From positions 13,764,001 through 13,828,000 of the forward strand of contig JBHGNT010000005.1 in assembly GCA_043228905.1 (NCBI GenBank): a stretch of 64,000 bases of DNA, written 5' to 3'. This document shows, piece after piece, positions 1-36,450 of this stretch (the stretch's first letter is position 1; each line of letters opens with the position of its first letter). The stretch comes from Azolla caroliniana. Taxonomy: Eukaryota > Plantae > Polypodiophyta. The notes below the pieces were generated by a model, which saw only the letters and a list, made by a program, of their open reading frames with translations, made no database searches and was not told where the DNA came from. Both the position numbers and the translations under genes were made by a program.

Positions 1-13
1 TCAAAATTTCTTT

Positions 14-3000
14 GTGCAGGATCGATCAACCTACCCCGTCATCCTTGCCCAGCCCTACATCACCGCAGTGAGGATGGAAACAAAGGTTATTGATGATGGT
101 TCGGCTTTCGCGAGAATCAAGAGTCAAGATGGAAGAAAGACTGTCCAATTCTTAACCGTGAGGCCCAACCATGAAAGAAACAAAGAATGCTTGAGGGAAC
201 ATCCAATTCAAGAGATGGATGAAGAGTTTTCCCAGGATTTTTAGATAGGGCTTTTACAGGTAGGGGCTGTGATAGCCCGAGCATAAAAGAAAACCCCATA
301 AATAATAATGTAAATAAAGATATTCCTTGTACAATCTCATCTAATGGTGCTACTTTTATACTAAAAGTAAATAATAATAAAATACAAAATGCTTTCGAGT
401 ACTTTAAGTGTTCTGGATTAATAGATGATGATGAAGAAATTCAGGATATGTTTGAAGAATTAAGTTTTGAAGATACAATAACTCATTTGGAAGCAATGGA
501 AGAAGACAACGAAATCCAAGTTCCTGTCCATTCAATCAAGATGTATGAGGTCATTGAAGAAGTTGCTCGAAAGGATCATGAAGCACATGTACTAACAAAG
601 TCCTATTGTTGCTCCACTTCCAGGGGATAGTGAAAAGGCAATCAAAGAAGCAGCCACAGAGCCAATGATCAGAGACCCACGAAAGGTAGGACATGTGTTT
701 ACTCCAGAAACAATACAAGGGATGAAAATAGGAGGGGGTGACTTCCTATTACCCGCTGAAGAAAAGCAGTTCAGGGAGATGTTAAAAAGGCATGGAAAGG
801 CGTTCGCATTCCAACCGGAGGAAATAGGGTGTGTGGATCCAGAAATTGTGGAGCCCATGGTTATATTCACTATCCCTCATATTCCATGGAACTTTAAGCC
901 AATACCCATGCCTAGGGCTAGAATCCCTCAACTATTAGAACTTTTGAAAGAAAAGATAAGGATGGGTATCTTGGAACCATCGAACGCTCCTTACTCGAGT
1001 CGATGGTTCACTGTGTTAAAGAAAGATGGGCGACTCCGATTTATCCAAGATATGCAACCCGTGAATAAGGTAACAATCCGAAACTCGGGAGTAGGGCCAA
1101 TTGTGGATGAGTTTGTTGAGATGTTTGCAGGAAGAGCTATATATTCAATGGGAGACCTTTATTCCAGGTATGATCAATTTCAACTTGCTATCAAAAGTCG
1201 AGATATAACTTCTATCAAGACACCTATAGGGTTAGTACGGATGTGCACCTTGCCGCAAGGAGCGACCAACTCAGTGGCGCATATGATGAATGGAATGAAC
1301 AAGGTACTTCGTGATTTTATTCCTCATATTACAATGCCTTTTCTAGATGATGTTCCAATTAAGGGATGCAAGGAGGAAGAGAAGAACGAGGAATTGGACG
1401 AAAGTGGTTGCCGTCAATTCGTTGCTGATCATATCAAGGATTGTGAGAAGGTGCTATCAAGGATGGAAGAAGTGCATTTGACCTTATCAGGGGCGAAGTC
1501 AATATTTGGGGCAAAAGAGATATTAATAGTTGGTCATATGTGTGGCCCGTATGGGAGAAAGCCATCCCCAACCAAGGTCAATGCAATTCAAAATATGCAA
1601 GAGGAATGTACATCCATCTCAGAAGTACGAAGGTTTTTGGGGGTATGTGTTTTTTACTGTAAATGGATTCCGCATTATGCCCATTTATCTGAACCTTTAT
1701 ATAGACTCCTAAGAAAAGGAGAGACATTTGAATGGAGTGAAGAGCATTCAGAGGCAATGAAGAAATTGAAGTACTACTTGGCACAATCTCCACCATTAAA
1801 GCAACCAGACTACACCCGGCCCATATATCTCACAGTAGACTCTAGTCCCATTGGAATTGGATGGGTGATAAGCCAACAAGATAGGGAAGAAAGGTATCCA
1901 GTCCGATTCGGGGCAAAGGTTCTTAGTGGTCGACAAAGAAAATATGCACAGGTGAAAAGAGAGCTATGAGGGATAGTAACAGTTGTAAAGACAGACAGAG
2001 ATTACTTAATTGGTGCTGAAGTAATAATAGAAACAGATTGTTTGCCTATTCTGGGTATCATAGCTAATTGTGATATTCCAGATCAAGCCATGTTAAGATG
2101 GTGTATCTATATTAGATCAATCAACCCTGAAGTTCGACATATCTCTGGGAATAGAAATGCAGTAGCAGATATGTTATCAAGAGCAAGGTATGAGGAAGAG
2201 GAGATTCCAGACTCGGACGATGAGGACAAAGAACAAATAGTCCTTACCACAAGCATTACTCGGGAAGGAGGAATGCAGTTTCTAGAAGAGGAGTATGAAG
2301 AAGAATTCAAGGAAATAGGGAAATACCTACAAACCCCTGACAAGTACAAAGGTCGATCTGGAAAAGAGTTCGCACAGTTTCGCAAGAAAGCCCATAAGTT
2401 CTTCCTGCATGAAGGATATCTATGGCGACATCTGAAAACCAAGAATGGAAACCCGCAAAGAGTAATAGGTTCTGAAGGGCAAAGAAAGGAGATAATCAGA
2501 GAGCTGCATGACAAAGAATGGGCTGGTCATCGAGGAGTGTGGGCCACTTTTAGTAAGATTAAAGAACGATTTTGGTGGCCTCAATACTATGAGCAAATAA
2601 AAAAGTATGTGGAAACTTGTCCCACTTGTCAATATTATTCAAATGTAAAATTTTGTGATGAATTACACCCAACATACTCACCGGGGGTGCATTACAAGTG
2701 GATGATAGATTTGGTAACAATGCCACTTGGAGTAGGACAAAAGAGATACTTGGTTCTTGCTAGAGAAGATCTAACAAATCAAGTGGAAGGTCGTTCATTG
2801 AGAACAAAAGGGACATTAGGAGTATGTCAATTCATCTTGGAGGACATTGTTTGTAGATATGGATGTATCGGGAAGATAGTGGCAGATAGGGGAGAACTCA
2901 ATTCTGCGGAAGCTCAAGATTTTTTCGACAAAATAGGAATTCGGCTTTCTTTGACAACGGCGTACAATCCAGAAGGTAATGGAAAGGTAGAAAGGGGACA

Positions 3001-3673
3001 TGGGCCAATAGTCAAAGCTTTGGCAAAGACATGTAGAGGACGGGTTAGTGATTGGCCAAAAACCTTACCCTATGCACTATGGGCTGATAGGACAACTCAC
3101 AGCACTGTTACTGGATATATGCCTGCAGAATTAATCACAGGACAGAAGCCAATAATGCCAATTGAAGAAAAGATAACTACATGGGTTGTGTTGCCTTGGG
3201 AATCGGAAATGAGTAGGGAAGATTTACTTGCGGTTCGAATACGACAACTTCAATTAAGGATAGAAGACATAGAAAAAGCAGCTACTAGATTGAAAGAGGC
3301 AAGAATCAAGAATAAGGACAGATTTGACAAGATGAAAAGAATACGACCAAGAAAGGTGCAAGAGGGAGATTGGGTATTAGTATATGATAATAGCCTAGAT
3401 AATCAATACAGTACTATTCGGAAGTTTGCAAAAAGATGGTTTGGACCTTATGAAGTTAGGAAAATAACAGATAAAGCCACATATTTCCTCAACGAATTAG
3501 ATGGGACAAAAATTCGTATCCCAATTGCAGGAAAAAGGATTAAAATATTTAAAAGGAGGGAATCATTAGGGCCTGAATTTTATGAAGAAGTAGAAGAACT
3601 AAAAGAATCGGAAGAAGTGTTGGATGAACTCTGCACAACCAATGTGCAAGTTCAGAGGGGGTGGGTGTCGTGA
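14..3673 (+). pseudogene. Gypsy A PR / RT-RNaseH-integrase polyprotein, disrupted
   Basis: ORFs 14-244, 448-630, 665-1969, 2042-3673; small deletion/frameshift near 600, TGA at 1967 where homologues have TGG (ELWG). Confidence 0.9.
235..297 (+). other. Putative -1 frameshift signal (GGATTTT + TAG, stem/pseudoknot), element A
   Basis: Slippery heptamer 235-241; GGGCT 248-252 pairs with AGCCC 274-278; loop GGGG 263-266 can pair with CCCC 294-297; -1 frame open into ORF 448-630. Confidence 0.75.
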
Positions 3674-10000: not shown

Positions 10001-12409
10001 GGATTCCGGGTCAACTGGAAATGGTTCAGGAGGATTCGGCTCGGGTGGTAACCATGATGTTGATTCGTTGTAGACTACATCTCAGCTTACACAAACCTTC
10101 CAAATAGAGGGATTATAGCACTTGTACCCCTTTTGCTCCAGTGAGTATCCAACGAGGATACATTTTTCTGACTTCGGGTCGAGCTTTTGTCACTTCTCGT
10201 TGGGGATGTGCACATATGCAATGGCGCCAAATATCCAAAAATGTGATACATTGGACTTCCTTTCGAAAAATTTCTCGTGCGGGCATGCACACCAGATGTT
10301 CTACACCGGTTCATTAGGTAGACGGCAATGTTGGCGGCTTCTGCCCAATACGACTTTGGCACGTGCTTCACGTTAAGCATGGGCCATGCTACTTCGATTC
10401 TTTCGTTCCACTACTCCATTCTATTGTGGCCTATGTCGACATGAAAACTCGTGTCTAATTCCGTATTTCCGGAGAAAGCCGAAAATTTGTCGGAGAAGTA
10501 CTCTTTTCCTCCATTCAACCGAAGACATCGTACATGACAACCGGTTGTCTTTTCGACTTCGTTTTAGAATTCTGGAAATGTTTGAACACTTCGCTCTTTT
10601 GCCGCATGGGGCAGATCCAGGCGTGCCCTGAGAAGTCATCGATGAAGGTCACGTAGTATCGACATCCGCCGAATGTAGCCGTTTGAGACGGTCCCCATAC
10701 ATAAGAATGAATTACGTCCAATATGCCTTTGTTCATGTTCCTCTCCTTCAGAAATAGGTGTCGATGTTGCTTGCTGAATTGGCATGTTGCACATATGCCT
10801 TCAATCTCTTTCTCTTTGAAGTTCGGGAGTCCGATGACGACTCCTTTCGATTGCATTTCCTTGAGCTTTTGGAGGTTGATGTCGCCAATCCGTTTATGCC
10901 ACAACTCTATGTCGATGTCAGCTTTGGTGCGAGTCGAGAATGAACATTGGGCCCTCTCTTCGTCCGCGAGTGATGAATCGACCCTCTTTTTTGACAAAGC
11001 AACAACCTTGATTAAATCAAACTTGCATACCTTGCTCAACAATTTGGCCGACGGAGAAGAAATTCTTCGTAATGGTAGGTACTTGCAAGACATTCTTAAT
11101 GTAAGTTTGGTTACCTTCTTTTCCAAATGGTACATTGCCGATGTGTCGAATCGTATGAGTGGTGTCGTCTCCAGTTTCGACATAGTTGGGTTCGTCCGGC
11201 ACTCGAAGTTCTAGGAACCATTCTTAATGAGACGTCACATGGTTCGAGGCACCAGAGTCGACGATCCATACATCTTCCGGACCGGAGGAACTAGTTGAGG
11301 TAAAAACTGACATAGAATTTGCTCTATGTCTCATCACGAACATTCCGCCATGGTCGTCATAGTCGGAGTTGGTGGCGTAATTCGTGAGTTGTCGGCTAGT
11401 GGAACCGACTCGTGCATCTTCTTTCAGCACTCTTCTTCATGGTGGCCGATTTTGCCGCAATATCCACATTTGATCGAGGTTTGTCAGCTCGGGCCGGAAT
11501 GGAAGCTCCCCCGTCTTCTCAAGGTTCCTCAATGGCGCTTTCGTCTAGTTGCCGAAATTGGGAGTTGTTTTCATGAAGCGGACCTCATCCGCCTCATCCT
11601 TGGCCGAATCGGCCTCTTGCTGAGTTGCGTCCTCTTCCTCCATTCGAATGCATGTAGAGCATGTGACCTTCCGAGGCATTGCTCCTTGTTCAAACATGGT
11701 TTTCTTCAACCAACAACATGGATTGAAAATTGAAGAAAGAGGGAGGATTCTCCCGTGCTAGTACGACAGTCCTCATCGTGCCAAACCGTGGTGCAAGGCC
11801 ACCGAGGTATATTTGCACCATCTCATCATCGTCCACATTGACGCTTACTGAGCCGAGTGAGTTACAAAGCTCCTTGATCTTCAAGGTGTGGCTTGTGATC
11901 GACATTTCCATTTCTTGCAAATTATTCAACTCTTGACGGAGTTGAAGCTTTCTTGCGGTTGTGCTGGTGGAGAAAAACTTCCCTAGATTCCCCCACGCTA
12001 CCGTCGACATCATGGCTTCTCGAATGTAGCCAAGCATGTGATCATGAACACACGTCACCAAGCAATACATCATTCGGCTTGCTGCTATTGTGTGATTTTT
12101 TACACACGATAAGAAAAGTAATGAAATAATTGTGTTAGGTTAGCTTAAATGGCTTAGTACGAAAGATGGATGTCTTCAAGGGCTTCCAAACACATTTTAC
12201 TACATATGAAACGGATAACTAAGTATCAAGCTATGTGACTATGAAGTTTGAGAAGATGAGGAAAACAAAATTGTGAGATATCCCACATAGTTAGGAAAAC
12301 ATCGGATCCAACAGTATATAGGCAGAGCCATAATACATTACTTCATATCTTTGTGTTTGAAGCACTAAATGACCAAGGTGAGCAGGGTTGAACTGTGTGG
12401 ATGGTTTGT

Positions 12410-12958
12410 TCATAGCCGATTTTGGGTCACGGCTTGATCGGCCACGATGCACGGCTCGGTCGAGACGTGTGCGTGCGCAGGTGCGGACATAGCCACGTCT
12501 CGATTGCGACGTGTGCGTGCGTGGAGGCGTCCACTGCTCGATCAAGGATGCCCGCGTGTGTTCGGTCGCGACATACGTACGGATTACTCACGGGAAGAAC
12601 TTTATGGATGATTGATCATATGGCTGAATATAAAGACGTCGCATACAACTAAAAGTAGAGACCATGCAACTAAATATGAATGCATGCAACTAAACTCGTA
12701 GCCGATTTTGGGTCGCGGCTTGATCGGCCACGATGCACGGCTTGGTCGGGACGTGTGCGTGTGTGGAGGCGTCCACTGCTCGGTCAGGGATGCGCGCGTT
12801 CAGTTCGGTGGATGTGCACGTGTGTTCAGTCGCGACACATGTACGGATTATGCACGGGCCGAACTTTATGGATAATTGATCATATGGCCGAATATAAAGA
12901 CGTCGCATACAACTAAAAGTAGAGACCATGCAACTAAAAATGGAAGCATGCAACTAAA
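12410..12958 (+). repeat. ~270-290-bp tandem duplication in the 5' LTR of D
   Basis: TAGCCGATTTTGGGTC...AAAAGTAGAGACCATGCAACT occurs twice (12412, 12699); single copy in the 3' LTR. Confidence 0.8.
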
Positions 12959-13389
12959 AGTGGGGATGAAAAGGAATATCAAGGGCATGATAAACAAAGA
13001 ATCCCATATATATTCCACTCTCTTCTTTTCTCCAATTTTATTTTTTTTTTCTTCTCGGCTCCCTTATCTTATGGAAGCCATAACACTCAAGAACCCTAAT
13101 TTTTGTTATCTAAGCTATCTCTCGATAATCCCTAAATTATTTTTTATCTAAGCCATATTTCATAAACCTTAATCTATTAATCTATCAACCTTTGTAAGAT
13201 AAAACTTTTGTAATCCCAATCTTGGGATAGATTGTAATTTTTCTTTTCCTTTCTTAATGAAATTTGTCAAACTTTCAAATTTCCATTAATTCTTAAAAGT
13301 ATAAACGTAGGAATCTGATATCCTTTCGTCGGAGGCGTTGGGGTCCTACCTCAAGTTCACATATCCTCGTCGTATTTTCGTGACATCTT

Positions 13390-13407
13390 TGGTGAACCCG
13401 ACGTGAA
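13390..13407 (+). other. Primer binding site, tRNA-Trp
   Basis: TGGTGAACCCGACGTGAA is complementary to the plant tRNA-Trp 3' end as recalled (...CACGTCGGGTTCACCA); same motif at 51986-52003 and 29407-29391. Confidence 0.8.
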
Positions 13408-15052
13408 ACGAGGCGGTAGGAGGATATCAAGTGTGACGATGGTTTCGACAAGCGGAAATCAAGGAGAGAAATTGACGAAAGGCATGGTGTGCGTTGTGGA
13501 ATACATGATGAAAGCGAGGGATCGAGAGGCTTTAATCGACAAAGTTGTAGATCAAACAGTGGAGATAGCTGGACGATTTGGTGGCAAGACCATCACGGAT
13601 TTCCTTGCTACGTATCGGAACGACATGGAGCAGAGGGATGTCAACGATCTTAAACAAATATCTAGCTTTAAACGTATGGTGGAACTAGGGATCTGCGAGA
13701 GCATCATGGAGATCCAAAATGAGCACACAACTTGAGCGGAGTTCGAAAAGGCGCTTCTTGCTGAATACATGCTTGAAGACACGTCATGGATGACTCGGCA
13801 TACGCTAATGATTTGGGTCGAGAAGAAACGGAAGAATCTGTGTGCATCAAGTGTATATAAGGAATTCGAACAAAAGTACAACCGACTTCCGAGTGTTGAT
13901 CAACGAGTTCTCGATGGAGATAAAGTCCTGCTATTACTGAAGGCGGTGGATATGAAAGACCAACAAGAATTAGGCAACCTTTTGGAGGATGACACGCAAC
14001 CAAATGGCTTGGTAGCGAACTGGGCGGTGGTGAAGAAGGCTTGTATCCATCTTGATAAGCGTCGACAATGGCTAGAGGAGACTGACGTGGAGAATCCACA
14101 ATCGTGGAGGAAGGCGCCTACAAAGATCGATCCTAGCAAGCAGATCAACAATTTTGACAAGAACGCGATTGAGTAGTCTATAATCGAAGAGCTCTCCAAG
14201 AAGTTTGAAGCGGTATCGCTAGCCAACTTAGGTCAACGCAGGCCCAAGGGAAAAGAAGTGTTTAGATGTGTGTGGTGCGACAGCTTCGAGCACTCGCGAA
14301 GGGAGTGCACTGACTTGCAAGACGCGATTCGCAAGAATGTCGTCTATTTGGACAGCAACATGATCCACTCGAGCGAGACCCGGAAGCCACTACGCGTGAA
14401 CTTCGGAAGAGGTGGGCTGAAAAAGATTGTGGAAGAGGAAGATGCAAGGCATGTGGAAGCTATGCATTATGCCGCATCGGCCGGTATACGAGTTGGAAGA
14501 GAGAATCTAAAGATGATCAAGCCAAGAGTTGGGTTTTGGCCGACGGTCTTCGAGTGCGAGAAAAAAGGAAAAATCAATTCGGAGGATCTTAAACTTGTTG
14601 ATCAGAATGTGCGACGAGTTACCGAATGGTCGGATCCAGTCGACAATAACACAAGCTTTGTGGAGGTTGTGTGTGACAACTATGAAGCTCTTGTCGAAGA
14701 GAAGAGGAAAAGAATTGGTGAAGAAGATGGCACATCAAAGCGTCCCAATACGAGGAACACAGGGAAAGAAGGGCAAGCCCAACCTACACCATGAAAAGAG
14801 ATTGGAGAAACAAGCATGAAGCCCGGTGGGTCAAGCCAACCTGCTCAGATGGAAGTCGATGAATCTGTGAAGAAAGGAAAAGATTGAGCGGCGCCGACTT
14901 ACAAGCTAAGGTCGGACATAGAACAAACAACTGACTTGCAAAAGGTTCTTGAGGAGAAGGTTTTAGACAGTCATGTTGACCTTATTTTAAGAGAACTGCT
15001 TGGGATCGTGAAGAAGGAGTTTCATGATACTATCGTGGACCTTATTAAGCGG

Positions 15053-15771
15053 TGTCGCGAAGATGCGCGTGCATGCGTTCTTTGCTTGAGCGGGACCATT
15101 GGGGTCTCGGACCGGGGAGGATGTTTGTGAAATTGTCGAAAAGATGACGATATGTATGCAAGAGTCGAGGAAACTAATGTCACACTTGAGAAGATCGAAG
15201 ATTTTTATGCTTGAGAAGAAAATATATGTCAAGAAGAAGAATAAGAAGATTATTATATTATTCTTGATGATGATGATAATGATGATGATCTCCAAATTGA
15301 CCCCCCTTTACACGAGCCCAACTAGAGGCTTTTATAGGTCTCTCCATGCTTGTGACATGCAAGAAACCATGGGCTAAAACCATGGTTTTGCATATGACAT
15401 GCACAAAACCATGGGCTAAAACCATGGGCTAAAACCATGGTTTTGCATATGACGTGCACAAAACCATGGGCTTAAAACCATGGTTTTGTTTACACGGTTT
15501 TGTACATTTGTTTCCTATGGAATACTGAATATGACAAGGAAATATACAAAATCTAAAGCACTTAGTAGTAGCTTTAGTGGTAAGCTAATTGCTTCCTATC
15601 TTGGAGGTGTAAGGTTCAAATCTTACTTGCACCCCTCTATACACACTCAATGCCATTAGGCCCTAGGTTTATTTATTATTGATTTATTTTCATTTTTACA
15701 AGTATTTGTGAAATGTGTGTGTATCCTCACTTTTTGACTTTTTCTCGCACTAAACACACCACATCACGATA
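15053..15771 (-). mobile_element. Gypsy solo LTR inside gag of D
   Basis: TGTCGCG...CACGATA ends; 4-bp TSD GCGG/GCAG restores LIKRKRQ; TATA on minus ~15330; AAAACCATGG repeats 15360-15490. Confidence 0.85.
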
Positions 15772-16343
15772 GCAGAAGCGGCAATAATCTGATGAAGAGG
15801 AGGTGAAAACAAGTGCCATAACCATGGGAAGATCGGAAGAGGAGGAAGAAGAAGAAGTGGTAATGGATAGCCATTGCTCTCGACCTCATTGGGCAAGAGT
15901 GACAGCGGAGACGCCGGTGAAGATCGAGGAGAAGAAAGAGATCGTGGTGGCCTTGATTGACCATGGATCGGAGATCAACCTCATGTCAACCGAGTTGTAC
16001 AAGAAAAGAAGATGGCCGATTAATACAAACCATGGAAGATTCGAGTGGCAACGAAGGCCACGGAGGACTTATACGGAGGTTGCCCCAAAGTTAAAGTCAT
16101 GGTTGGGGATGTGGAGATTGATCAACACTTTTTCATGCAACACTTTTTCATGCAAGACTCGGCTTCACATCCCGCCATCCTGGGACAACCGTATATAACA
16201 TCGTCCCAGATGGAGACCAAGGTGTTCAATAATGGAGCAACCTTCGCACGAGTCAAGACCCTTGACAGTCAAAGATCTGTGAAATTCCTGATGGTGCGAG
16301 CTAATCACGAAAGGAATTGAGATAGCCTTGGAGGCGAATCCTT

Positions 16344-16407
16344 GGATTTTTAGAGTGGACTATTGAAGCGTGGGGCACAAATAGTCCGAGAAATCATAAG
16401 TCCCCAC
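16344..16407 (+). other. Putative -1 frameshift signal, element D
   Basis: GGATTTT 16344-16350 + TAG; GGACTATT 16357-64 / AATAGTCC 16380-87; GTGGGG 16370-75 / CCCCAC 16402-07; -1 frame open to 16706. Confidence 0.78.
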
Positions 16408-19400
16408 AAGGAAGCAGAGTATGTGGATTGCAAGGAGAAGAAACATGCGTCACACCTAACGGCGCATGTAAACTAACACTACTCAACAAGAAGGACAAGC
16501 GTGGGATACAAGACTTCGAGAAGGTGCTAGAAGAAGAAAGCATAATCGAAGAAGAAGAATTCGTGTCTCATATTCTGGAGGAAGCCTCATTTAACGACAC
16601 CGTCGGCGAAATCAAGGAAGTCGTGGACTTGAGCTATCTTCATGATCGACACGTGATTTTGGTTACCTCCATCAACATGTATGCTATCATCGATGAATAT
16701 CATTGAAGCATCTTGATGGAGGAAGCTGAAGTCAACACAAAATATAAAATGGTGGATAGGAAGATCAAGCCAGTGCAATTCCGCTACCAGAAGATAGTTA
16801 GCAAAAGATGAGGGAAGTTGCAAAAGATCCAAGCTTAAGGAATCCAAAGACAATAGGTCACGTCTTCACTGAAGAGACAAAAGGAAAGCTACGAGTTGGA
16901 AGGGAGGATTTCGTCCTTCCTGAAGAGGAGCGAATGTTCCGCGGAATGCTTGAAAGACATGGGAAGGCTTTTGCATTTTTCCCACAGGAAATCGGATGTG
17001 CTAATCCAAGGACGGTAGAACCGATGGTGATCTTCACGCTGCCACATGTGCCTTGGAATTTGAAACCGATACCGGTTCCGAGAGCACACCTACAGAAGCT
17101 GATCGAGCTCTTAAAGGAGAACGTGAATATGGGAATTCTAGAGCCATCGAATGCTCCATATTCTAATAGGTGGTTGATGGTGCCGAAGAAGAATGGATCA
17201 TTGTGATTCATCCAAGATCTTCAACCCATCAACCAGGTGACAATTCGGAATGCTGAAATTGGTCCGAGTGTGAATGAATTTGTTGAGGCGTTTGTGGGCC
17301 GATCCATCTACTCCATTGGCGATCTCTACTCTGGATACGATCAATTCCAGTTGGCGATCGACAGTCATGACATTACAACCATGAGGACTCCGATCGGCCT
17401 TGTGCGGATGTGTACCTTACCTCAAGGTGCAACGAACTCGGTGGCTCATATCGTGAATGCCATGAACAAGGTCTTGAAGGATTGCATCCCGGGCATCACA
17501 ATGCCATTCTTGGATGAGATTCCGATAAAAGGATATTCGGATGAGGAAAAGGATGAATCGAAAGATAAGGATGGATGCCAAAAGTTTGTCATGGATCATA
17601 TGAAAGATTGTGAGAAGGTGCTCCAAAGGCTCAAAGATGCGAATTTGACATTTTCAGGAGAAAATTCCACATTGGGGCAACCCGAGATCTTGGTGGTAGG
17701 TCACTTGTGTGGAGAATACGGTCGGAAGCCTTCTCCATCCAGGGTGAATGCGATCCAAGACATGAAAGAAGAATGCGTAACCAAAACGGAGGTTCAAAGG
17801 TTCCTTGGAGCATGTGCCTTTTATCATATTTGGATTCCACACTACGCCCACATTGTTGAGCCATTATACCGTCTACTAAAGAAGAAGCGGAGGTTCGAAT
17901 GGATGAGCGAGCATACTTTCACCATCCGAAGGCTGAAGAATTTGTCCATGGAGGCACCTGCATTATGGAAGGCGGACTATTCAAACGGCAAGCCCATTTT
18001 CGTGACCGTGGATACTAGTCCGACCGGAATTGGATGGGTTATCAACCAAGAAGACGAAGATTGCAACTGATATGCAATTCGGTTTGGCTCAAATTTGTTA
18101 AGTGATAGGCAAAGAAGGTATGCCTTAGTGAAGAGGGAGCTATGGGGAATCGTATCGGCGATCAAGTGTGATCGTGACTACCTTATTGGAGTAGAAGTCA
18201 TAATCGAGACAAATTGCCTACCAATCTTGGGTATGATATCTGGTTGTAGTAGACCAGATATTGTCATGCTACGTTGGATTACATATATCAAATCACTCAA
18301 ACTGAATATCCCTCATGTAGCTAGGAAGCGTAATGTCATTGCAAACATGCTATCATGAGCAAGATATGACGGAGAAGAAGATCGACATTCTAATGAAGAG
18401 GATGTTGGCTTAGTTTTCTTTACAAGTTCCTGCGCTCAGGTGCTGACTACTTTCATAGAAGAGGACTACAAAGGTGAATTCATGGAGATCGGGAAATACT
18501 TGAGTTCTCTCAAAAAGATGAATCATGGTCGACAAAAGACTTCCACCGAATTCGGAAGAAGGCGTACAAGTATTTCCTTAAGGATGGATCTCTTTGGAGG
18601 CATGCAAAAAAGAAGGGGACTCTGATGAGAGTTGTCTGCAAGCTGGAAGACCGACAAAAACCAATGTCTGAATTTCATGATAGTGTTTTTGCAGGTCATC
18701 GAGGAATATGGGCTACATTCACGAAGCGTAAGGAGAAATATTGGGGGTCGGGCATCTACAAATATGTAGTAGCTTATGTGGAAACATGTAAGGAATGTCA
18801 AGTGTTTTCGAATGTTCGTCATCGAGATGAACTTCATCCGACTTACCCGTTGGCTATGCATTACAAGTGGATGGTAGACATCGTAATGATGCCAATGGGG
18901 AAATGGCAGATGAAGTATCTTATGCTCGCGAGAGAGGATCTTACCAATCAAGTTGAAGGGCGAGCATTGAGAACTAAGGAGACATCATCAGTATGCAGAT
19001 TCCTTCTTGAAGATGATATTTGCAGATATAGATGCGTCGGCAAGATAGTGGCTGATAGAGGCAAGTTGGACGCCAAAGAAGCTAGAGAATTCTTCTCTAG
19101 GATAGGAATCAAATTATCTCTTACCACAACATATAATCCAGAAGCGAATGGGAAAGTGGAACGTGGACATGGACCGATTGTGAAGCCTCTAGTGCAATCT
19201 TGCCATGGGAAAATAGGAGAATGGCCACGTCTATTGTCATTTGCACTATTGGCTTACAGGACTATTCATAGCATGGGGACGGGATACATGCCAATAGAGC
19301 TCATATTCGAACAGAAGCCGATAATGCCAGTGGAACAAAGTATTGTTTCATGGTTTGAATTGCCATGGCAAGATGAGATAAGTAGAGAAGATCTTGTAGC

Positions 19401-21545
19401 ATTGAGGATTCGACAGTTGGAGCGGAAGTTGGAAGATATAGAAGTGGCGAAAGCGCGGCTAAAGAATGCAAGGCTGAAGAACAAGAAAGACTTCGACAAA
19501 CGACATTGATTTCGTCCAAGGAAAATCATTGAAGGAGATTGGGTGTTGTTCTACGATAGTAGCTTAGATAACCAACATAGTACGGGTTGAAAATTTTCAC
19601 AACGATGGTTTGGACCATATGTGGTGAAGAAAGTGGAAGATAATGCAACATATCGATTAGCAGAACTAGATGGTACACCACTTGCTTTGCCAATTGAAGA
19701 AAAGAGAGTGAAGATCTTGAAGAGAAGAGAGGCCCCAAATCTTGAAATCGAAGCTCTAGAAGATGTAGCCTTGACCATCGAGGTTGAAAAACAATAATCA
19801 AAAGAGGAACCTCACTACAATTGGCACATACCGGTGGATGTGCAAGTTTGGTGGGGGTGAATGTCATGTGATTTTTTACACACGATAAGAAAATTAATGA
19901 AATCATTATTTTAGATTAGCTTAAATGTCTTAGTACGAAAGATGGACATCTTCAAGAGCTTCCAAACAGATTTTACTACATATGAAACGGATAACTAAGT
20001 ATCAAGCTATATGACAATGAAGTTTGAGAAGATGAGGAAAACAAAATTGTGAAATATCCCACATAGTTAGGACAACATCGGATCCAACAGTATATAGCCA
20101 AAGCCAAAACAAATTACTTCATATATGTCTGTTTGGATCATTTAATGACCAAGGTGAGCACGGCTGATCTATGTGGATGGTTTGCTCGTAGCCGATTTTT
20201 GGTCGTGGCTTTATCGGCCACGATGCACGCCTCAGTTGCAACTTGCCCGAACACATCCACAACTCGGTTGCGACGTGTGCGTGTGTGGAGACGTCCACAG
20301 CTCGGTCCATGACGTGTGCGCGGTCGGAGGCATCCACGGCTTGGTCGCGATGTGTGCATGCACGGAGGCATCCACATCTCGGCCAGGATCATGCGCGCAC
20401 GTGTTCGGTCATGACGCACGTACAGATTACGCACAGGCCGAACTTTATGGATGATTGATCATATGGTTGAATATAAAGACGTCTAATACAACTAAAAGTA
20501 GAGGCCATGCAATTAAAAATGAACGCATGCAACTAAAAGCCATGCAACAAAAAGTGGGGATGCAAAGGAACATCAAGGGCATGATCAACAAAGAAACCCA
20601 TACATATTCCACTCTCTTCTTTTCTCCATTTTTTTTATTTTTTTATTTTCTTCTCGGCTCCCTTATCGTATGGAAGCCATAACACTCAACAGCCCTAATT
20701 TTCTGATCAAAGCCATAAACCCTAATTTCCTTATTGAAGCCATAACACTCAAGAACCCTAATTTTTCTTATCAAGCTATCTCTCGATAATCCCTAAATTA
20801 TTTTTTATGTAAGCCATATTTTGATAAACCGTAATCTATTAATCTATTAACCTCTGTAAGCTAAAACTTTTTTAATCCCATTCTTGGGATAGATTGTAAT
20901 TTTTCTTTTCCTTTCTCAATGAAATTTGTCAAACTTTCTGATTTCCGTTACTGCTTCAAAGTATAAACGCAGGAATCTGATATCCTCTCGTCGGAGGCCC
21001 CAGGGTCCCACCTCAAGTTCACATATCCTCGTCGTATTTTCGCGACACCGCTTGGTCCCATGTTGAGGAGTCGGCGTCTTTCGGGTCTGGTCGATTTTCT
21101 TCTGCTCCTTTGATATAGCTCCAATATCCTTGACTGACAAGGTATTGGTGCATCTTGTACTCCAAAGATGCAAAGTTGTTTCGATTCAACTTCTTGCTAG
21201 GGAGAGCACTCCCCATTTGAGTATTCATTGTCGATGAAGGTTTCTTTCATTTTTTCATTCTCTCTCAAACACGAGCTATGTAGTCGCACTACAATAGCGA
21301 TGAGCCGGTTCTTCTAAAACGTCGGCGAAGAACACAACACATGCGGATTGGCTAGATCACGCTACCAAACCACTTTGATACCATGTAAAGAATCAAATAT
21401 GATTCTTGTGCAACAGAAGAGATGTCTGAGAAGAAAGAGATGTGAGAAGAGAAAACACAAGATAGATTAGATAGAATAGAAAATAGAATACTCAAGAAGA
21501 AAGTGTTCTCAAAGGGTGTGTTCGCACATTGCACTAGGTTGAGTT

Positions 21546-22447
21546 TGTTGGGAGACAGGTCCCTCCGGATGGGAAGAGAAAAGAACAGTGATGATGAACA
21601 AACTCGGCTACAGAGAGCCGGATGATGCAGACCCGGTGAAGACCGGATGACGAGTACCCGGCTACGGAGAGTTGGATGGTGCAGACCTGGTGAGGACCGG
21701 ATGAGGAGTACCCGGCTACGGAGAGCCGGATGATGCAGACCCGGTGAAGACCGGATGAGGAGTACCCGGCTACGGAGAGCCGGATGGTGCAAACACGGTG
21801 AGGACCGGATGAGGAGTACCCGGCTACGGAGAGCCGGATGATGCAGACCCGGTGAAGACCGGATGAGGAGTACCCGGCTACGGAGAGCCGGATGGTGCAG
21901 ACCCGGTGAGGACCGGATGAGGAGTACCCGGCTATGGAGAGCCGGATGACGCAGACCCAGTGAGGAATGCTCTCCGGATGAAGAGACATATTCGTAAATA
22001 TGTTTCTGAAGAGCCCATCGTGGCTATATTTGTAAATAGCCGAAAAGTCATATTAGTATAAATATGACTTAGGGCAAACTTTTAGTAAAGGGTTGTTGTC
22101 ATTTCTTGTTTTGCACGAGATTAGTGCACGTAACAGTGTACAGAGAGAGAGAGAGAGAAAGAGGTCGTTGCCTCTACTGTAACCGCCACCTGTGGCGAAG
22201 ATCGTGAGCACGAGGTCGTTGCCTCTGTGAACTCACTGTTGTACATACTAACCTAGTGATAGTTGCAGCCTGTGGGCTGCCGTGGTTTTTCCCCTAGTTT
22301 GGGGTTTTCCACGTTAAACATCCTGCGTACAATTTTTCTTTCTTTCTCCTTTGTGTCGCGTGTTTTTCGTTTACTGTTTCTTCTGTGTATGATTCTAAGC
22401 TTGGTTGTGGCCAAGCGTTGTGCATAAGGAGCCTTGAGTTCCCGACA
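21546..22447 (+). mobile_element. Solo LTR (family shared with 24854-25510)
   Basis: TG...CA, perfect 5-bp TSD GAGTT, TATAAAT ~22057. Confidence 0.9.
21613..21965 (+). repeat. 54-bp tandem array, ~6.5 copies
   Basis: GAGAGCCGGATG(A/G)TGCAGACCCGGTGA(A/G)GACCGGATGAGGAGTACCCGGCTACG units start at 21613, 21667, 21721, 21775, 21829, 21883, 21937. Confidence 0.95.
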
Positions 22448-24853
22448 GAGTTTGATTCTCAACACTTTCTTTTATAGATGCCCCCATGCATATGATGCAT
22501 GTCATGGTGTAAGCCATGCATATAATCCATGAAATGCATGTGATGCATGATTTCCATTTGGCGCTCATGCATCGCATGTGATGCATGATAACTATGCCAC
22601 GCATGTACGAGAAATTAAATGTCAAAAGTACAATGATGAAAGTAGAGCTTAAAGAAACAACTTAGCCTAATGGTATATCAATTGTCTCCTATGTTGGAGG
22701 TTTAAGGTTCAAAACCCATATGCACATTAACGTGCTAATATACTAGTGTAACCATCACCCCTTTCATGCATGTGCACATTGCACCTTCTCAGTTTTCTCC
22801 TTTCCACGTGATTTTCACACCGTTGCCGAAAATCTTCACAACATCCTCCCCTACCAAACCGCACGTCCTCTGGTATGTGCGATCGATCCGATTCCTCCAC
22901 GTCCTTGTTGACCTCGCTCATTTTTATGGGTTCCACCCTACCATCTTCATTGTTGAGGTCATGGAGGTCAGGACCCTCATCTTGTCTTTTCTTGAAGATC
23001 TTTACACTTTTCCCCGCAGTGGGTATGGCCAACCTTGATCTGTCTAGCTCTGTGAGGTGGTAGGTGGCGTTGTCGTTGGCACTCATCACCACACACGGTG
23101 TGAACCACGTTCTTGCAAACTTCCAGTACCCAATCTCCTTCTTCAATCTTCTTGGGACACGGTTGATGTGTCTTGTCGAATCAAATCACTCAGGTTATCT
23201 GCATTATCTTTCGCGCATTCGCTAGATCTTCGGGTCTTCTTTTGAGCTGCCTTATCTGCGCCACTAATCATTCTTCCCATCTCATCTCATTCTCCCATGG
23301 TATTGCTACCCATGAGGCGATCGTCCTCTCGATGGGCATTACTGGCTTCTATCCATACATGAGCTCTGTTGGCATATAGCCTGTCACAGAACTATGCGTA
23401 GTTCTATCGGCTCACAATGCATAGGGCAATACTTGCGGCCAGTTCCCAACTCGATTGTCACATGCTCGTATGATGGCTTTGACTATCGGCCCATGCCCTC
23501 GCTCGATCTTCCCATTTTCTTCTGGATTGTAGGCAATCATGAGGGAGAGCTTCTCACCTAATCACTCGAAGACCTCCATTGCTTCGTGTGCATCCAACTC
23601 CCCTCGGTCGGCCACTATCTTTCCCACACATCCGTATCGGAGACAGCCTCTTCGAGCACAAATTTGCAAATGGTTTTCATCGCCTTATTTGCTAAGGCCC
23701 ATCCTTCTACCTGGCTTGTCAGGTCTTCCCTTGCTAGTACCAAGTACTTCATCTGTCCCACTCCCATTGGCATTGAGACCAGATCCACCATCCATTTAAA
23801 GTGTATAGTGAGTGGGTATGTTGGTTGCAACTCATCATGGTGACGTATGTTCGAATGTACTTGGCAGCTTTTGCATGTGGACATGAAATGTAGTACATCT
23901 TTATATATGCTCAGCCACTAGTACTTCTCCTTCAACTTTTCAAATGTTGCCCATGTTCCTCTATGGCCTGCCCATGGACTCTCGTGGAATTCAAACATCA
24001 ACGTTGTCTTGTCCTCTCTCTTCACCACTACTTGTCATGGCATCCCTATCCTTCTCTTTGGCTGGTGCCAGAGGAATCCTCCCTTCAAAAAATACTCGTA
24101 AGCTTTCTTCCGTATTTGTAGAGCCTCCCCCTTCGTCCACGAAGCATCTGCCATCATTGTTCTCAAGAACTTGCTGATTAGTAACCACTCCCCTTCATAC
24201 TCATTCTCGTTGAAAGCGTTGAGGGTTGGCATGCCTCTGTCTTCTACCAATAGTCGGGCTACGTTGAAGAAGTCGAGGGCGACTTCTTCATCTTCCGAAA
24301 CCACGTCACTTTCATCCTCGAATCTTGCTCTTGACAGCATGTCGGCCACGGCGTTGTTCTTCCCAACAATGTGGCAAATCTTTGGGTTTAAAGACTTGAT
24401 ATAAGAAATCCACCTTAGCATAGCCAGATCCGGTGTCGCAGATCCGGAGATCATCCCAAGGATTGGGAGGCAATCTATTTCAATTACCACTTCCAACCCG
24501 ATCAGGTAGTCTTTGTCTACCTTCACTGCAAACACAATACCCCAAAGTTTCCTTTTGACTTGGGCATATCCTCGTTGTCACTCCGAACCGGATGGCGCAC
24601 CGCACACTATCTTCTCCTTCTTGGTTGATGACCCATCCAATTCCCATTGGGCTCGTATCTACCATGCCATAGATGGGCATCCCTTATTTGTAGATTGCTT
24701 TCCTTAAAGCGGGTGCTGCCACCAATAGCCCTTTTAACCTCTTCATCGCTTCTGTGTGCACCGGTTCCCATTTGAATTTTCTCCCTTTCATCAGTAAGCT
24801 ATACAAAGGTTCAACCACATGAGCATACTGCAGAATCCAAATGTGGTAGAACA

Positions 24854-25203
24854 TGTTGGGAGACAGGTCCCTCCGGATGGGAAGAGAGAAGAACAATGTT
24901 GATGAACAAACTCGGCTGAGGTCGAAATCGTATGATGAGTACCCGACTACGAAGAGCCGGATGGTGCAGACCCGGTGAGAACCGGATAAGGAGTACCCGG
25001 CTACGGAGAGCCGGATGGTGCAGACCCGGTGAGGAGTGCTCACCGGATGAAGAGACATATTCGTAAATATGTTTATGAGAGTCCATCATGGCTATATTTG
25101 TAAATAGCCGAAAAGTCATATTAGTATAAATATGACTTAGGGCAAACTTTTAGAGTTGTCGTTATTCTTGTTGGTGCAAGAAGAGAGAGAGTGTGTAACC
25201 GTG

Positions 25204-25240
<37 letters not shown>

Positions 25241-25510
25241 GTCGTTGCCTCTGTTGAAACCGCCGCCTGTGGCGAAGATCGTGAGCACGAGGTCGTTGCC
25301 TCCGTGAACTCACTGTTGTACATTCTAACATAGTGATAGTTTGCAGCCTGTGGGCTGCCGTGGTTTTTTCCCTAGTTTGGGGTTTTCCACGTAAACATCC
25401 TCTGTACTCTTCTCTTCTTTGAGTCGTGCATTTATTTCCCATTTTCTGTGTATGATTCTAAGCTCGGTTGTGGCCGAGCGTTGCGTATAGGGAGCGTGCA
25501 GTTCCTGTCA
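24854..25510 (+). mobile_element. Solo LTR inside RT/RH of E
   Basis: TG...CA, perfect 5-bp TSD GAACA; homologous to 21546-22447 with only ~2 units of the 54-bp repeat. Confidence 0.9.
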
Positions 25511-26480
25511 GAACACACATGCTCCTAAGAATCTTCGGACCTCTGTCTGTGTTCCACATTCTTCTCACATATCTTGAATAGCATTCACCTTCTCAATAGA
25601 GGGTTTCCATCCGTATGGTTCACAAAGATGTCCCACTACTAGGATCTAGCGTTGGCCAAATGCCGATTTTTCTCCAGAGAATATGACCCCTGCACCTTCT
25701 AGTCCTTTTAGCACTTTTTCACAGTCTTCAATATGGTTTGAAACAAATCTTGAACATCCATCTTGATCTAAAGGCTCGTCCTTCTCTGATTAAGGGCATC
25801 CTTTTAAAGGGATGTCATCTAGGAAAGGCATTGTAATATCTGGGATGTAGTCTCTTAGTACTTTGTTCATGGCATTCATCATATGGGCAACTGAGTTAGT
25901 TGCTCCTTGCGGTAATGTACACATCATTACTAGCCCAATGGGAGTCCGCATTGTTGTGATGTCTCGATTATCCAAAGACAATTGAAATTGGTCGTATCCA
26001 GAATACAAGTCTCCAATTGAGTAAATCGACCTTCCTGCAAAAGCTTCAACAAACTCATCAACACTAGGTCCAATCCCAGCATTACGAATGGTGACCTTGT
26101 TTACCGGCTATAGATCTTGGATAAATCGAAGTGCTCCATTCATCTTCGGCACCATGAACCACCTATTTGAATAAGGCGCATTAGATGGCTCAAGGATTCC
26201 CATTCTAATCTTTTCCTTTAATAGCTCTAGCAATCTTGGAATGTGAGCTCTTGAAACATGAATTGGCTTCAAGTTCCATACCACATGGGGTATTGTGAAG
26301 ATAATCATTGGTTCTACAAGCATTAGGTCAACACATCCGATCTCTTGTGGGCAAGAGGCAAACGCTTTCCCGTGCTACTCCAACATTTCCTAGAACTTGG
26401 AATCTTCTTTGGGTAGCAAAAACTCACCCCCACCAACTTTGAGCTTCCTCTGAGTTTCGTTGGTGAAGACGTGCCCTACT

Positions 26481-26940
26481 TATTAGAGACATGAACTAAT
26501 GTAAGCATAAAATAAGGATAAAAGATAGATCTAGGGTATAAAGCGACAGAGTTGATCAGAATCACTCTGTTGACTTGCAGTTTCAATTTGATGTCTTTCT
26601 CCATTTCCCCATGTTGATGGGTAGGGGGTGGAGCCAAGAAGAGCTCCACCCCCCTCCCAAGGGGGTTGAGCATGAGAGAGAGAGAAAGAGATAAAGAGAT
26701 AAAGAGAGAGACAAAACAATGTTGAGAGGAAAACTTGTATTTCATTCATGTCCCCTATGGTGGGGTTATATAGGTACATTCCATGAGGGTTACAATCCAA
26801 GAACATCCATGAGGGTTGTAGGTTAGTTACATAACCTTGTAACAACCTACCCACTTTACATATTAATATACTCACTCACTCATGTGCACATTTGAACATA
26901 CACTTACACATGTCTTCACTTATCTATCCATGTACCAACA
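26481..26940 (-). mobile_element. Probable solo LTR of another family
   Basis: Starts TGTTGGTACA on minus, TATA-like CTATATAA, CT-rich leader; interrupts E; no clean TSD and adjacent host sequence is missing. Confidence 0.55.
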
Positions 26941-27179
26941 CACTATACTATCAATCCCACGGATAACACCCCAAGAGTATCATCAAATGATATTATCTCC
27001 ATGTACCCATTTATTGCCTCTTCCTTTTTCATAATCCCGATTGCTCTAAGTTGTTCCTCTAGGATTTCTATTTTAATATCTTCTCCGTTAATGTTTATAA
27101 ATTTGCACATCCCATTTTCAGAAAACAAGAATTCCTTTTCATTAATGGGGTGGGGTGACAACTTTTAATATACTGAATT

Positions 27180-27244
27180 GGGGACAAAGTTAGATGTCCC
27201 GGACTATTGTTGTCCCTCTCCCTAATAACCCAAATTAAAAATCC
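27180..27244 (-). other. Putative -1 frameshift signal, element E
   Basis: Minus: GGATTTT (27244-27238) + TAA, 6-nt spacer, GGGTTATT/AATAGTCC stem, loop GGGACA complementary to downstream TGTCCC. Confidence 0.7.
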
Positions 27245-29560
27245 TCCTTAGATTCTATCCCTAAGCTATGCCTATTTCTTGCATGGTTTGGTGGCACGGT
27301 GAGGAATTGAACTGAGTGTGTTCCATCCTGACTTTGTGTCCGCACATATGCCGAACCATTATCAAGTACTTTTGTCTCCATCCGGGATGTTGTAATGTAA
27401 GGCTCGCCAAGGATGACAGGATGTGACGCCGAGTCCTGCACAAAGAAGTGTTGATCATGCTCGACGTCGCCAATAGTTACCTTAACGTTAGGCCAGGCCC
27501 CATGAAGCTCTTTCGTCGCCCTTGTTGCCGCTCGAATCTTCCACCCATGCCTATTATTAATGGGCCAAAGACCTTTCCGATAGAAGTCAAGGAACATGAG
27601 GTTGATCTCCGAGCCATGATCAATTAGCGCCACCACCGGATCTTTCAAGTCTCCCATCCGCACCGGTGTCTCAGTAGTGTCCCTAGCCCAATGTGGCCTC
27701 GCGAAATGGCTATCCACAAATTCTTGTTCAATTTCAAGACCTTCCGTTGTGATAGCGCTCGTCGAGACATTTGCCGATCTAGCTCCTTCTTCAGTTGTCA
27801 TCAGTCTCTTCCTTTTTATTACGTCAATGATTACATCATGAAATTCTTTCTTTGCAATTCCCAGGATCTCCCGCAGTGCGAACTCAATTCGGCTATCCAG
27901 GATCCTTTCTTCCATCACATGCTTAAGGTCGGTGAATTGCTTTATCTCTGAGCATAGTTTGAACGTCGGTCCGATTATTTCCTTCTCTTTTTCGGTTGTT
28001 GTTTGGGGCGGTGACGATTCCTCCCTTCTTCTAATAGCTTCTCTTGTTTCATGTTTCTTCGAAGAGACTGATTGCTTGTCTGGTCTTTTTCGTTTCTCTT
28101 CAACTAGGACATCGTAGTTTTGACACATAGCCTCCACAAAGCTAGACTTCTCCTCCACAGGGTCCTCCCATCCCATCATTGTTTGGACTCTTTGTTCCGC
28201 TTTGAATGCCTCATTCGTGTAGAGCTTCCTTTTCCAGACTTGGTTCAATATGATCGGCCAAAATTCTTCAACTTGAGACTCTTGGGTTCTCGTCTCATGT
28301 CCAACTCGAATTCTGGTGGATGAGGAATAGTAATTACACTATTCACTTTGTTTAGTTCCAATTCCTCCATCAACTTCTTCATACCTCCTCAGCCAAAGTT
28401 GGTGTTGAGAGGATGCTACGACACCGAGGAGTGAATCCGATTGTTGGAGAGATAAATGATATCTCATCGGAGGGCATTTTGGAATTCAGAGCAATCTCTC
28501 AGTTGGTGTTACAAAGAGTCACACCAAATACACCTGTAGGGAAAGTCCAGGTGACGACCCGGAAAATTTTGGGTTTCTTCCAATTTGATAAATTCTCATC
28601 TCTCGAAGCATGTCTGCAAATTCATCCATTGTTGCTCCACCCATGGGCTGAGCCACTTTGTCATCCCTCGGTCTTTGGGCTTGTGGTTCTTGTCTTGCAT
28701 TATGAGTTTGCCGACCAATCTGAGCTGCAGCACTCGATCTTGTCGCGTGGTCCCATTGTTGACACTTATCAAAACGTCCACACGCTCTCTTCACTGCTGC
28801 CCAATCAGAAATGCAACCTTCATCATTTTCTAGTAGTAGTCCAAGATCTCTTTGATCTTTCACATCTACTGATTTGATAAATAGGAGCCCCTTGCTGGAA
28901 TCAAGAATCGTTTGGTCAAGTGCAACTAGGCGATCAAATCTTTGCTTGAATTCGTGGAGCGTCGCACTTGCACTCAATTCTTTGTTAGTAGATTCCACCC
29001 AATTCATTAAATCCTTCTTCGTCATTCGAGATGAGTCACCAAACCCATATTCTTCAAGTAAACTTCGTTCGAAAGATGACCATTCCGGATTGGCCTCTTG
29101 TAGCTCTCGGATCCAAAAGTAAAGACTTGAAGTTACAATCCTCGAGAAGCTTGCCACTTGTCTCGCCATGGGAATACCCTTTATCCACATTTCCTCCTTG
29201 AAGGTATTGTGTCACGTCTTTACCATCAAAACATCCGTTGTCATCCACGATCCTATCGATGGCAACGTCAAGGCCTCCAACGTTATCTCTCATTTGAAGC
29301 ATTTGGTCCATCATCTTCGCCATTGGTTGTGCTAGACTATCATTGGAGTCTCTAGCACTTGAAGTTTTGGCCATCCTCCCTTGCCGCTCTTCATGTCGGG
29401 TTCACCAAATCTAATGTCGCGAAAATCTGCGCCTACGGGTCGGTTGAACGGGAACATCGGGGATGATGAATCGGATGACTTCTGCTTGTAAGGAATCGGC
29501 CGTTTAGTTTTATAGTTGAGTCGTTCTTTGTTGTCAAAGATGCTTCCGCGGGTTGGATCC

Positions 29561-36435: not shown

Positions 36436-36450
36436 TTCCAGAGTTGCAAC

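Follow-up and report, generated by a model that had tools for sequence, protein, structure and literature searches.

Overlapping protease and reverse transcriptase frames with a candidate pseudoknot-stimulated −1 frameshift signal in Ty3/gypsy retrotransposons of ferns, mosses and liverworts

In Rous sarcoma virus the protease (PR) belongs to Gag (PMC12789967), and ribosomes gain access to pol by frameshifting (PMC7618472). Among plant retrotransposons, PR and reverse transcriptase (RT) are separated in Ogre by a spliced spacer of ~274 bp and in Retand by a single in-frame stop, neither being listed with overlapping frames at this point (PMC6317226). According to a 2016 review, the plant elements surveyed in 2003 gave only +1-frame cases, and the same text names pea enation mosaic virus RNA 2 as one in which G_GAU_UUU has been tested for shifting and a nearby stop affects efficiency (PMC5009743). 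REXdb (Neumann et al. 2019) has Phygy as Physcomitrella-specific and its open reading frame (ORF) organization as "ND" (PMC6317226), and how the Gag:Pol ratio is controlled in plant long terminal repeat (LTR) retrotransposons is poorly known. Here we analyse 64,000 nt of the Azolla caroliniana genome (contig JBHGNT010000005.1, positions 13,764,001 to 13,828,000; this whole stretch is referred to as the window), in which four decayed Ty3/gypsy elements, A, D, E and H, carry a real, lineage-wide recoding signal at the junction of PR and RT. We read it as −1 frameshifting between the two, probably stimulated by a predicted H-type pseudoknot 6 nt downstream of the slippery heptamer GGATTTT (with a probability of roughly 0.88). 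This reading draws on the two-ORF layout, the site, the short overlap, the fixed spacer, the covarying stems, the coding constraint on the linker, and unspliced reads. The signal is of textbook quality, lies at the rarer PR/RT position, and is found across fern, moss and liverwort elements; it would fill the layout gap for Phygy in REXdb.

The position of the shift had been presented in the original prediction as unusual. A PR/RT shift is indeed undescribed for plant retrotransposons in the literature searched, but a −1 split between Gag-PR and pol is known in Rous sarcoma virus and a PR/RT split in Ogre and Retand. That literature (including PMC12786077, PMC6911290 and PMC7466625) describes neither a frameshift signal for Phygy nor a natural pseudoknot-driven −2 shift in a retrotransposon; it does not extend to subscription papers, Repbase, or Gao et al. 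2003, so that a prior mention is possible. A shift between PR and RT in Dictyostelium Skipper was likewise not borne out there. As to Rous sarcoma virus, the likeness consists of a −1 shift between PR and RT and is presumably convergent, since that is an avian retrovirus whereas the elements described here belong to a non-enveloped plant Ty3/gypsy lineage. The heptamer and stimulator of Rous sarcoma virus also differ from those found here.

Four junctions in the window

The heptamer GGATTTT starts at positions 235, 16344 and 54142 on the forward strand (elements A, D and H, next codon TAG) and at 27244 on the reverse strand (element E, next codon TAA). The PR frame reads G GAT TTT TAR in all four elements, terminating a QFLTV...DF peptide. 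Stem 1 starts 6 nt past the heptamer and spans 31 nt in four of four, and its loop carries a segment complementary to one further downstream (GGGG/CCCC in A, GTGGGG/CCCCAC in D and H, GGGACA/TGTCCC in E). The junctions, spacer, stem span and stem-2 complements are all where and as they had been predicted; the description of stem 1 held for the preserved pairing but fell short in extent, since the stem can extend to 12 bp. The features are as follows.

2..244, + strand: 3′ end of the gag-protease ORF of element A, cut by the window edge, ending ...FSQDF and a stop; 93% nucleotide identity to the intact relative L072
223..630, + strand: −1 frame ORF of A, forming the transframe linker; compared with L072, a deletion of 26 nt near 600 interrupts it
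235..241, + strand: slippery heptamer of A, G GAT TTT; TAG at 242-244, 6-nt spacer at 242-247
248..278, + strand: stem 1 of A, 248-259 with 267-278, 11 of 12 pairs; the loop bears the 5′ arm of stem 2, GGGG, at 263-266
294..297, + strand: 3′ arm of stem 2 of A, CCCC
596..3673, + strand: remnants of RT, RNase H and integrase of A (RVT_1, RT_RNaseH, Integrase_H2C2, rve)
16344..16350, + strand: slippery heptamer of D; TAG at 16351-16353
16357..16407, + strand: stems of D, with stem 1 at 16357-16387 and stem 2 formed by GTGGGG (16370-16375) and CCCCAC (16402-16407)
27235..28338, − strand: gag (DUF4100)-protease ORF remnant of E, ending ...SKEDF and a stop
27238..27244, − strand: slippery heptamer of E; TAA at 27237-27235
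27181..27231, − strand: stems of E, with stem 1 at 27231-27201 and stem 2 formed by GGGACA (27216-27211) and TGTCCC (27186-27181)
54142..54148, + strand: slippery heptamer of H; TAG at 54149-54151
54155..54207, + strand: stems of H, with stem 1 at 54155-54185 and stem 2 formed by GTGGGG (54168-54173) and CCCCAC (54202-54207)

Both strands of the window together hold 11 GGATTTT heptamers. A stop follows directly in only the four sites of A, D, E and H. These four are also the only ones at which 7 or more of 8 stem-1 pairs and 5 or more of 6 stem-2 pairs can form, a level attained at 0.28% of 127,860 window positions. Rfam at its gathering thresholds gave no match in the window. Past the ORF1 stop the −1 frame is free of stops for 131 (A), 120 (D), 49 (E) and 55 (H) codons, in agreement with the claim that it stays open there. 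All four copies are decayed, with frame-breaking indels ~365 nt past the site in A, ~430 nt in D and ~520 nt in H, and the RT ORF of element A now lies back in the PR frame. The window by itself can therefore not prove the frame relation, which intact relatives do. Moreover, the four junctions are homologous and hence not independent draws, so that the functional test is the variation across relatives.

Frame of pol and pseudoknot stems across relatives

Relatives were retrieved by two protease peptide patterns, neither of which touches the junction; of 219 matches, 152 were relatives and the best 80 of these were used. A search of genome contigs added one further relative, L081, while 40 pattern matches in viral contigs included no relatives. 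The junction was located in 75 of the best 80 and in L081 (76 in total; none was located in L024, L031, L053, L068 and L079), with GGATTTT as the heptamer in 67 of the 76. In 38 loci pol stays open for 500 codons or more, counted from the site, and its frame is −1 in 36, +1/−2 in two and that of PR in none, as would be expected of intact copies under the original prediction. ORF1 of at least 680 codons and ORF2 of at least 1000 codons occur together in 25 loci, and all 7 ORF2 sequences scanned encode RT, RNase H and integrase. The common frame in 36 loci rules out chance-indel decay as the cause of the offset; three loci with an apparent +1 frame (L052, L055 and L078) have only 9 to 42 open codons and were taken as decayed copies. 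In L002 and L059 the overlap between the upstream stop of the pol frame and the ORF1 stop is 10 nt with the heptamer inside, which pins any shift to the heptamer. The contig of L081 comes from a bin labelled uncultured cyanobacterium and has a plant-type element with a heavily compensated stem 1; it is probably a eukaryotic contaminant of that bin.

The protein homologues show the same boundary. Among 115 long homologues there are 72 intron-free ORF calls, none of which reads through into RT: 56 end in DF, NF or GF, 14 end 4 to 5 residues past DF with a stop that falls within stem 1, one ends in QVFD and one is cut short. A stop directly after DF, as claimed for the window elements, is hence common but not universal. 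In a shorter protein set (n = 120), 42 end in DF, 4 in NF and 20 in PL. The other 43 of the 115 long homologues are eukaryotic gene models, with PR-pol joins among them at differing points.

For comparisons between families, loci were grouped into 36 families at 85% protease identity. Covariation was assessed in the 26 whose pol frame is open for 200 codons or more; ten fell below that threshold and were excluded (L057, L034, wD, L070, L058, L047, L052, L055, L078 and L043). Access to pol by splicing as in Ogre, with the structure regulating the splice, is scarcely credible for these families. The heptamer leads straight into an open, constrained pol frame with no noncoding spacer, only 6 of 26 families have donor-like sites (at five different places), and the gene models are cut at differing points. 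Polyadenylated RNA reads from three runs, sampled at ~12% each, cover the junction of L012 at mean depths of ~9, 6 and 19 and show neither a joint nor an indel at it, the sole joint in L012 reads being a 105-nt AC..CA skip far downstream. The three marks of an Ogre-type intron, i.e., a spacer, a conserved donor and a joint in the reads, are accordingly all lacking. On the other side stand the low RNA depth, the ~12% sampling and the presence of reads from both strands, which make a rare spliced form possible.

Pol might instead be synthesized separately, from an AUG close to the ORF1 stop or beyond it, through reinitiation or internal initiation. This would suit 5 of 26 families, in which the pol frame has an AUG near the stop; both families of the +1/−2 clade are among them. 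It is nevertheless very improbable, as the other 21 families have no pol-frame AUG near the junction, the first Met is not conserved (codon 3 to 111), the AUGs of the two clade families lie at different positions, and the fixed heptamer and spacer would go unexplained. The stretch upstream of the first Met is also free of stops, with a ratio of nonsynonymous to synonymous substitution rates (dN/dS) below 1. At linker codons 25 to 110, dN/dS is 0.11 to 0.48 in 10 of 12 pairs, the other two being saturated; upstream of the first Met the range is only 0.22 to 0.72, from five pairs and short stretches.

In the predicted pseudoknot, positions 1-12 pair with 20-31 as a stem 1 of 8 to 12 bp, followed by a loop of ~1 nt, a stem 2 of ~6 bp (from positions 14-19) and a last loop of 11 to 16 nt. 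Each of stem-1 pairs 1 to 8 is retained in 24 to 26 of the 26 families. Stem 1 forms a mean of 10.0 of 12 pairs with its own arms, compared to 8.86 with permuted arms (0 of 20,000 permutations reach the observed value) and 6.3 when the pol frame is recoded synonymously (25 of 26 families at p < 0.05). Stem 2 scores 5.31, compared to 4.67 for arm swaps with the register re-optimized for each swap (0 of 20,000). In a structure-blind, gapless MAFFT alignment 81% of cells pair, versus 38 to 41% in a slid-partner control, and 15 of 18 pairs vary on both sides, with two-sided change in 5 of the 6 pairs of stem 2. When mapped onto a tree, 32 of 39 changes in stem-1 pairs 1 to 8 preserve pairing, eight of them two-sided, and stem 2 has nine two-sided pair-preserving changes, versus 0 to 1 in slid controls. 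Nested folding of eight families gave mean stem-1 pair probabilities of 0.47 to 1.0 and stem-2 duplex energies of −7.7 to −12.7 kcal/mol. The stems therefore covary across the 26 families, as had been anticipated, with stem 1 well supported and stem 2 supported less firmly. The sequence features of a canonical −1 signal are present: a heptamer that is a known variant of the X XXY YYZ type, in the 0 frame within the ORF overlap, a covarying downstream structure, and a spacer inside the 5- to 9-nt range of −1 frameshifting (PMC7618472).

Several points weigh against the −1 pseudoknot reading, in addition to the shallow RNA coverage and the short stretches upstream of the first Met. Stem-1 pairs 9 to 11 hold in just 12 to 15 of 26 families. 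The tree was built by a quick method, the shuffle tests ignore relatedness, which inflates them, and most loci derive from one set of related assemblies. Published gene models of Physcomitrium and Riccia join PR to pol, at differing points; their junction-bridging introns are probably false. P0396, a distant singleton with ~50% pol identity, has PR and RT in one 1374-amino-acid ORF, and the frameshift signal is thus not universal in the wider group. Finally, stem 2 passes the synonymous-recoding control (p < 0.05) in only 10 of 26 families, three families have 4 of 6 stem-2 pairs at the standard register, G/C runs occur, and in the families of E and D (L002 and L026) a local hairpin after stem 1 competes for the 3′ arm of stem 2 (in the window, 27181-27200 on the − strand in E). 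The low number of families passing this control and the competing hairpins, together with the frequent pairing of a G run with a C run, would fit a real −1 shift stimulated by the stem 1 hairpin alone, with stem 2 incidental or an alternative fold. We consider this unlikely, however, because stem-2 variants other than runs are still complementary (GCGAGA/TCTCGC, TGAGGG/CCCTCA, GCAGGG/CCTTGC), arm swaps score lower even with the register re-optimized, and two-sided, pair-keeping change is seen in stem 2 both in the alignment and on the tree. The competing hairpin in the E and D families is possibly an alternative conformer that could tune frameshifting.

Two side observations concern the same proteins. 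Many annotated "predicted proteins" of Physcomitrium and Riccia among P0001-P0355 are pieces of this retrotransposon, and P0396 is usable as an outgroup for timing the origin of the frameshift.

In pseudoknot-stimulated −1 frameshifting, with steps modelled on the established process, the ribosome would pause at the predicted pseudoknot while GAU occupies the P site and UUU the A site, and tRNA-Asp and tRNA-Phe would re-pair from GAU UUU to GGA UUU, one base back. Shifted ribosomes would then pass a linker of ~125 to 135 codons into RT and give a Gag-PR-linker-RT-RNase H-integrase polyprotein as a minority product. Most ribosomes would remain unshifted and terminate at once or within a few codons, releasing Gag-PR, and the protease would then be as abundant as Gag.

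The original prediction had likened the signal to that of dianthoviruses and umbraviruses. The likeness stands for the heptamer and the nearby stop but not for the stimulator, which in those viruses is a bulged stem-loop that pairs over a long range with a distant loop, unlike the compact, local H-type fold predicted here (PMC5009743). With infectious bronchitis virus the elements share a natural 6-nt spacer and a stem 1 of ~11 bp (PMC3458567, PMC5009743); they differ in the heptamer and in that stem-1 pairs 9 to 11 are often open here. Structure-function studies in a plant translation system could draw on the 26 families as naturally occurring versions of a single pseudoknot.

A clade with pol in the +1/−2 frame

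AG_GUU_UUU is the −2/−1 site of the arterivirus PRRSV, and −2 shifting peaks at spacers 1 to 2 nt below the −1 optimum (PMC7618472, PMC3458567, PMC11818727). Two of our families, L069 and L074, form a clade (support, 100) nested among the −1 families in the quick tree. Their junction is CAG GTT TTT with a 5-nt spacer. Both stems are intact downstream of it, stem 1 with 11 and 12 of 12 pairs and stem 2 with 6 of 6. The pol ORFs, of 1154 codons in L069 and 1101 in L074, are in the +1/−2 frame; in the −1 frame a stop comes immediately in L069 and five codons on in L074. The two differ at 19% of protease nucleotides, and a synonymous divergence (dS) of ~1.2 with a dN/dS of ~0.08 for both PR and pol means that both have been translating pol since they split. 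The NNQVFD end of the L069 type is common to six database proteins, five of them with a full 724-amino-acid ORF1, although these six may come from related assemblies.

The change from GAU to GUU makes a run of five U residues, which would allow the A-site tRNA-Phe to re-pair two bases back. On these grounds a −2 slip appears the likeliest route to pol in this clade, and we lean slightly towards the view that, in a lineage with a conserved pseudoknot-driven PR/RT shift, one branch switched from −1 to −2 by two matched changes, the loss of one base from the spacer and GAU to GUU. Here too there are points on the other side. The clade is represented by two junction sequences, one contig each; reads and contigs placed on L074 fail to bridge its junction and so give the 5-nt spacer no independent support; in both families an AUG of the pol frame precedes the stop, by 17 or 26 nt; and in L074 a +1 re-pairing of UUU on UUU is possible. 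A +1 slip or reinitiation might give access to pol, or the 5-nt spacer might be an inactivating deletion or an assembly error, which we regard as a tentative yet serious alternative. It has to contend with the divergence and strong constraint of both ORFs, the stems kept in both families, a −1 frame that closes within five codons, and six database proteins with the same NNQVFD end. In addition, the two spacers are equal in length but unlike in sequence, and L069 has no cognate +1 re-pairing.

If the −2 slip is right, the resemblance to arteriviruses is confined to the site. The L069 and L074 junctions conform to the arterivirus −2 pattern, RG_GUU_UUU with the product ORF in the −2 frame; their AG GUU UUU is letter-identical to the PRRSV site of the nsp2TF −2/−1 signal, and their 5-nt spacer accords with reporters in which the optimum for engineered −2 shifting is 1 to 2 nt shorter than for −1 (PMC7618472, PMC3458567). 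The arterivirus signal, in contrast, involves no RNA structure and needs nsp1beta and a poly(C)-binding protein, whereas in L069 and L074 a predicted cis pseudoknot would gate an essential polymerase. The CCCANCUCC motif of the protein-stimulated arterivirus signal is absent from both junctions, which have the paired stem-1/stem-2 cassette downstream instead, and the two families are not members of that class.

The 5-nt-spacer clade pairs a natural −1 with a probable −2 version of one cassette, making the spacer-tension model testable on evolved rather than engineered sequences. The −2 branch, if true, would represent a natural −2 shift stimulated by a cis pseudoknot and controlling access to an essential polymerase. 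It would also amount to a test of the mRNA-tension model by evolution. L057 (L057:1256-1310), a partly decayed copy in which G GTT TTC is followed by a 6-nt spacer and pol is in the −1 frame, is possibly of a type intermediate between the −1 and −2 forms.

Element identity and window surroundings

Three of the four elements can be delimited in the window.

12086..21047, + strand: element D, full length, 8.96 kb; LTRs at 12086-13385 and 19862-21047, flanks CTGC/CCGC, primer-binding site at 13390-13406
22467..29462, − strand: element E, approximate ends, interrupted by insertions; primer-binding site from 29407, blocks 81 to 90% identical to L002
51333..58339, + strand: element H, full length, 7.0 kb; LTRs at 51333-51981 and 57691-58339 (97.7% identical), flanks ACGT/GCGT, primer-binding site at 51986-52002

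Pfam places DUF4100 in ORF1 and RT, RNase H (RH) and integrase (INT) downstream, which is the Ty3/gypsy order, and GAG-PR-RT-RH-INT lies between LTRs together with a primer site and a polypurine tract. A 17-nt primer-binding site, putatively the complement of tRNA-Trp, follows the 5′ LTR identically in D, E, H and 38 related loci. The target duplications of D and H are of the 4-bp NCGN type with one mismatch each. Element D sits inside a Copia-type element (11311-12085 plus 21048-21330 of the window), of which a second copy near 29557-30330 represents the empty site with a single CCGC. Neither a chromodomain nor an extra (archaeal-type) RNase H gave a Pfam match in any of the 7 intact pol ORFs scanned. 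The named protease homologues are from Physcomitrium patens, Adiantum nelumboides and Riccia sorocarpa, the best Physcomitrium ones being 51 to 63% identical.

For Phygy, REXdb gives a 4-bp NCGN duplication, a tRNA-Trp primer and a length of 7.7 to 10 kb (PMC6317226). The window elements are decayed Ty3/gypsy elements with Phygy hallmarks (NCGN duplication, no chromodomain, moss homologues). They are like Phygy also in having no extra RNase H, a compact internal region and close Physcomitrium homologues; element D, at 8.96 kb, falls within the listed length range and H, at 7.0 kb, under it. Unlike in the Phygy entry, homologues are found here in Adiantum and Riccia as well, and the layout is GAG-PROT overlapping RT-RH-INT.

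The catalytic motif of the predicted protease domain is D-H-G, rather than D-T/S-G, in 222 of 251 homologues matching the motif pattern (e.g., at window positions 27238-27831 on the − strand). D-H-G is unusual for a retroviral-type protease.

The only host gene recognized among 53 ORFs scanned is an intronless ORF of 537 amino acids at 34837-36450 (− strand) for a PHT1-type phosphate transporter. It is 83 to 85% identical to fern proteins and mostly 72 to 78% to seed-plant ones; its closest named relatives come from ferns and not bryophytes, in keeping with a fern host. A tandem array of ~7 units of 54 nt occupies 21548-22033, with a related copy near 24887 within element E. Other Ty3/gypsy remnants (RT, RNase H and integrase), separate from the four Phygy-type junction elements, lie at 43764-47489 and 60830-61441 on the + strand.

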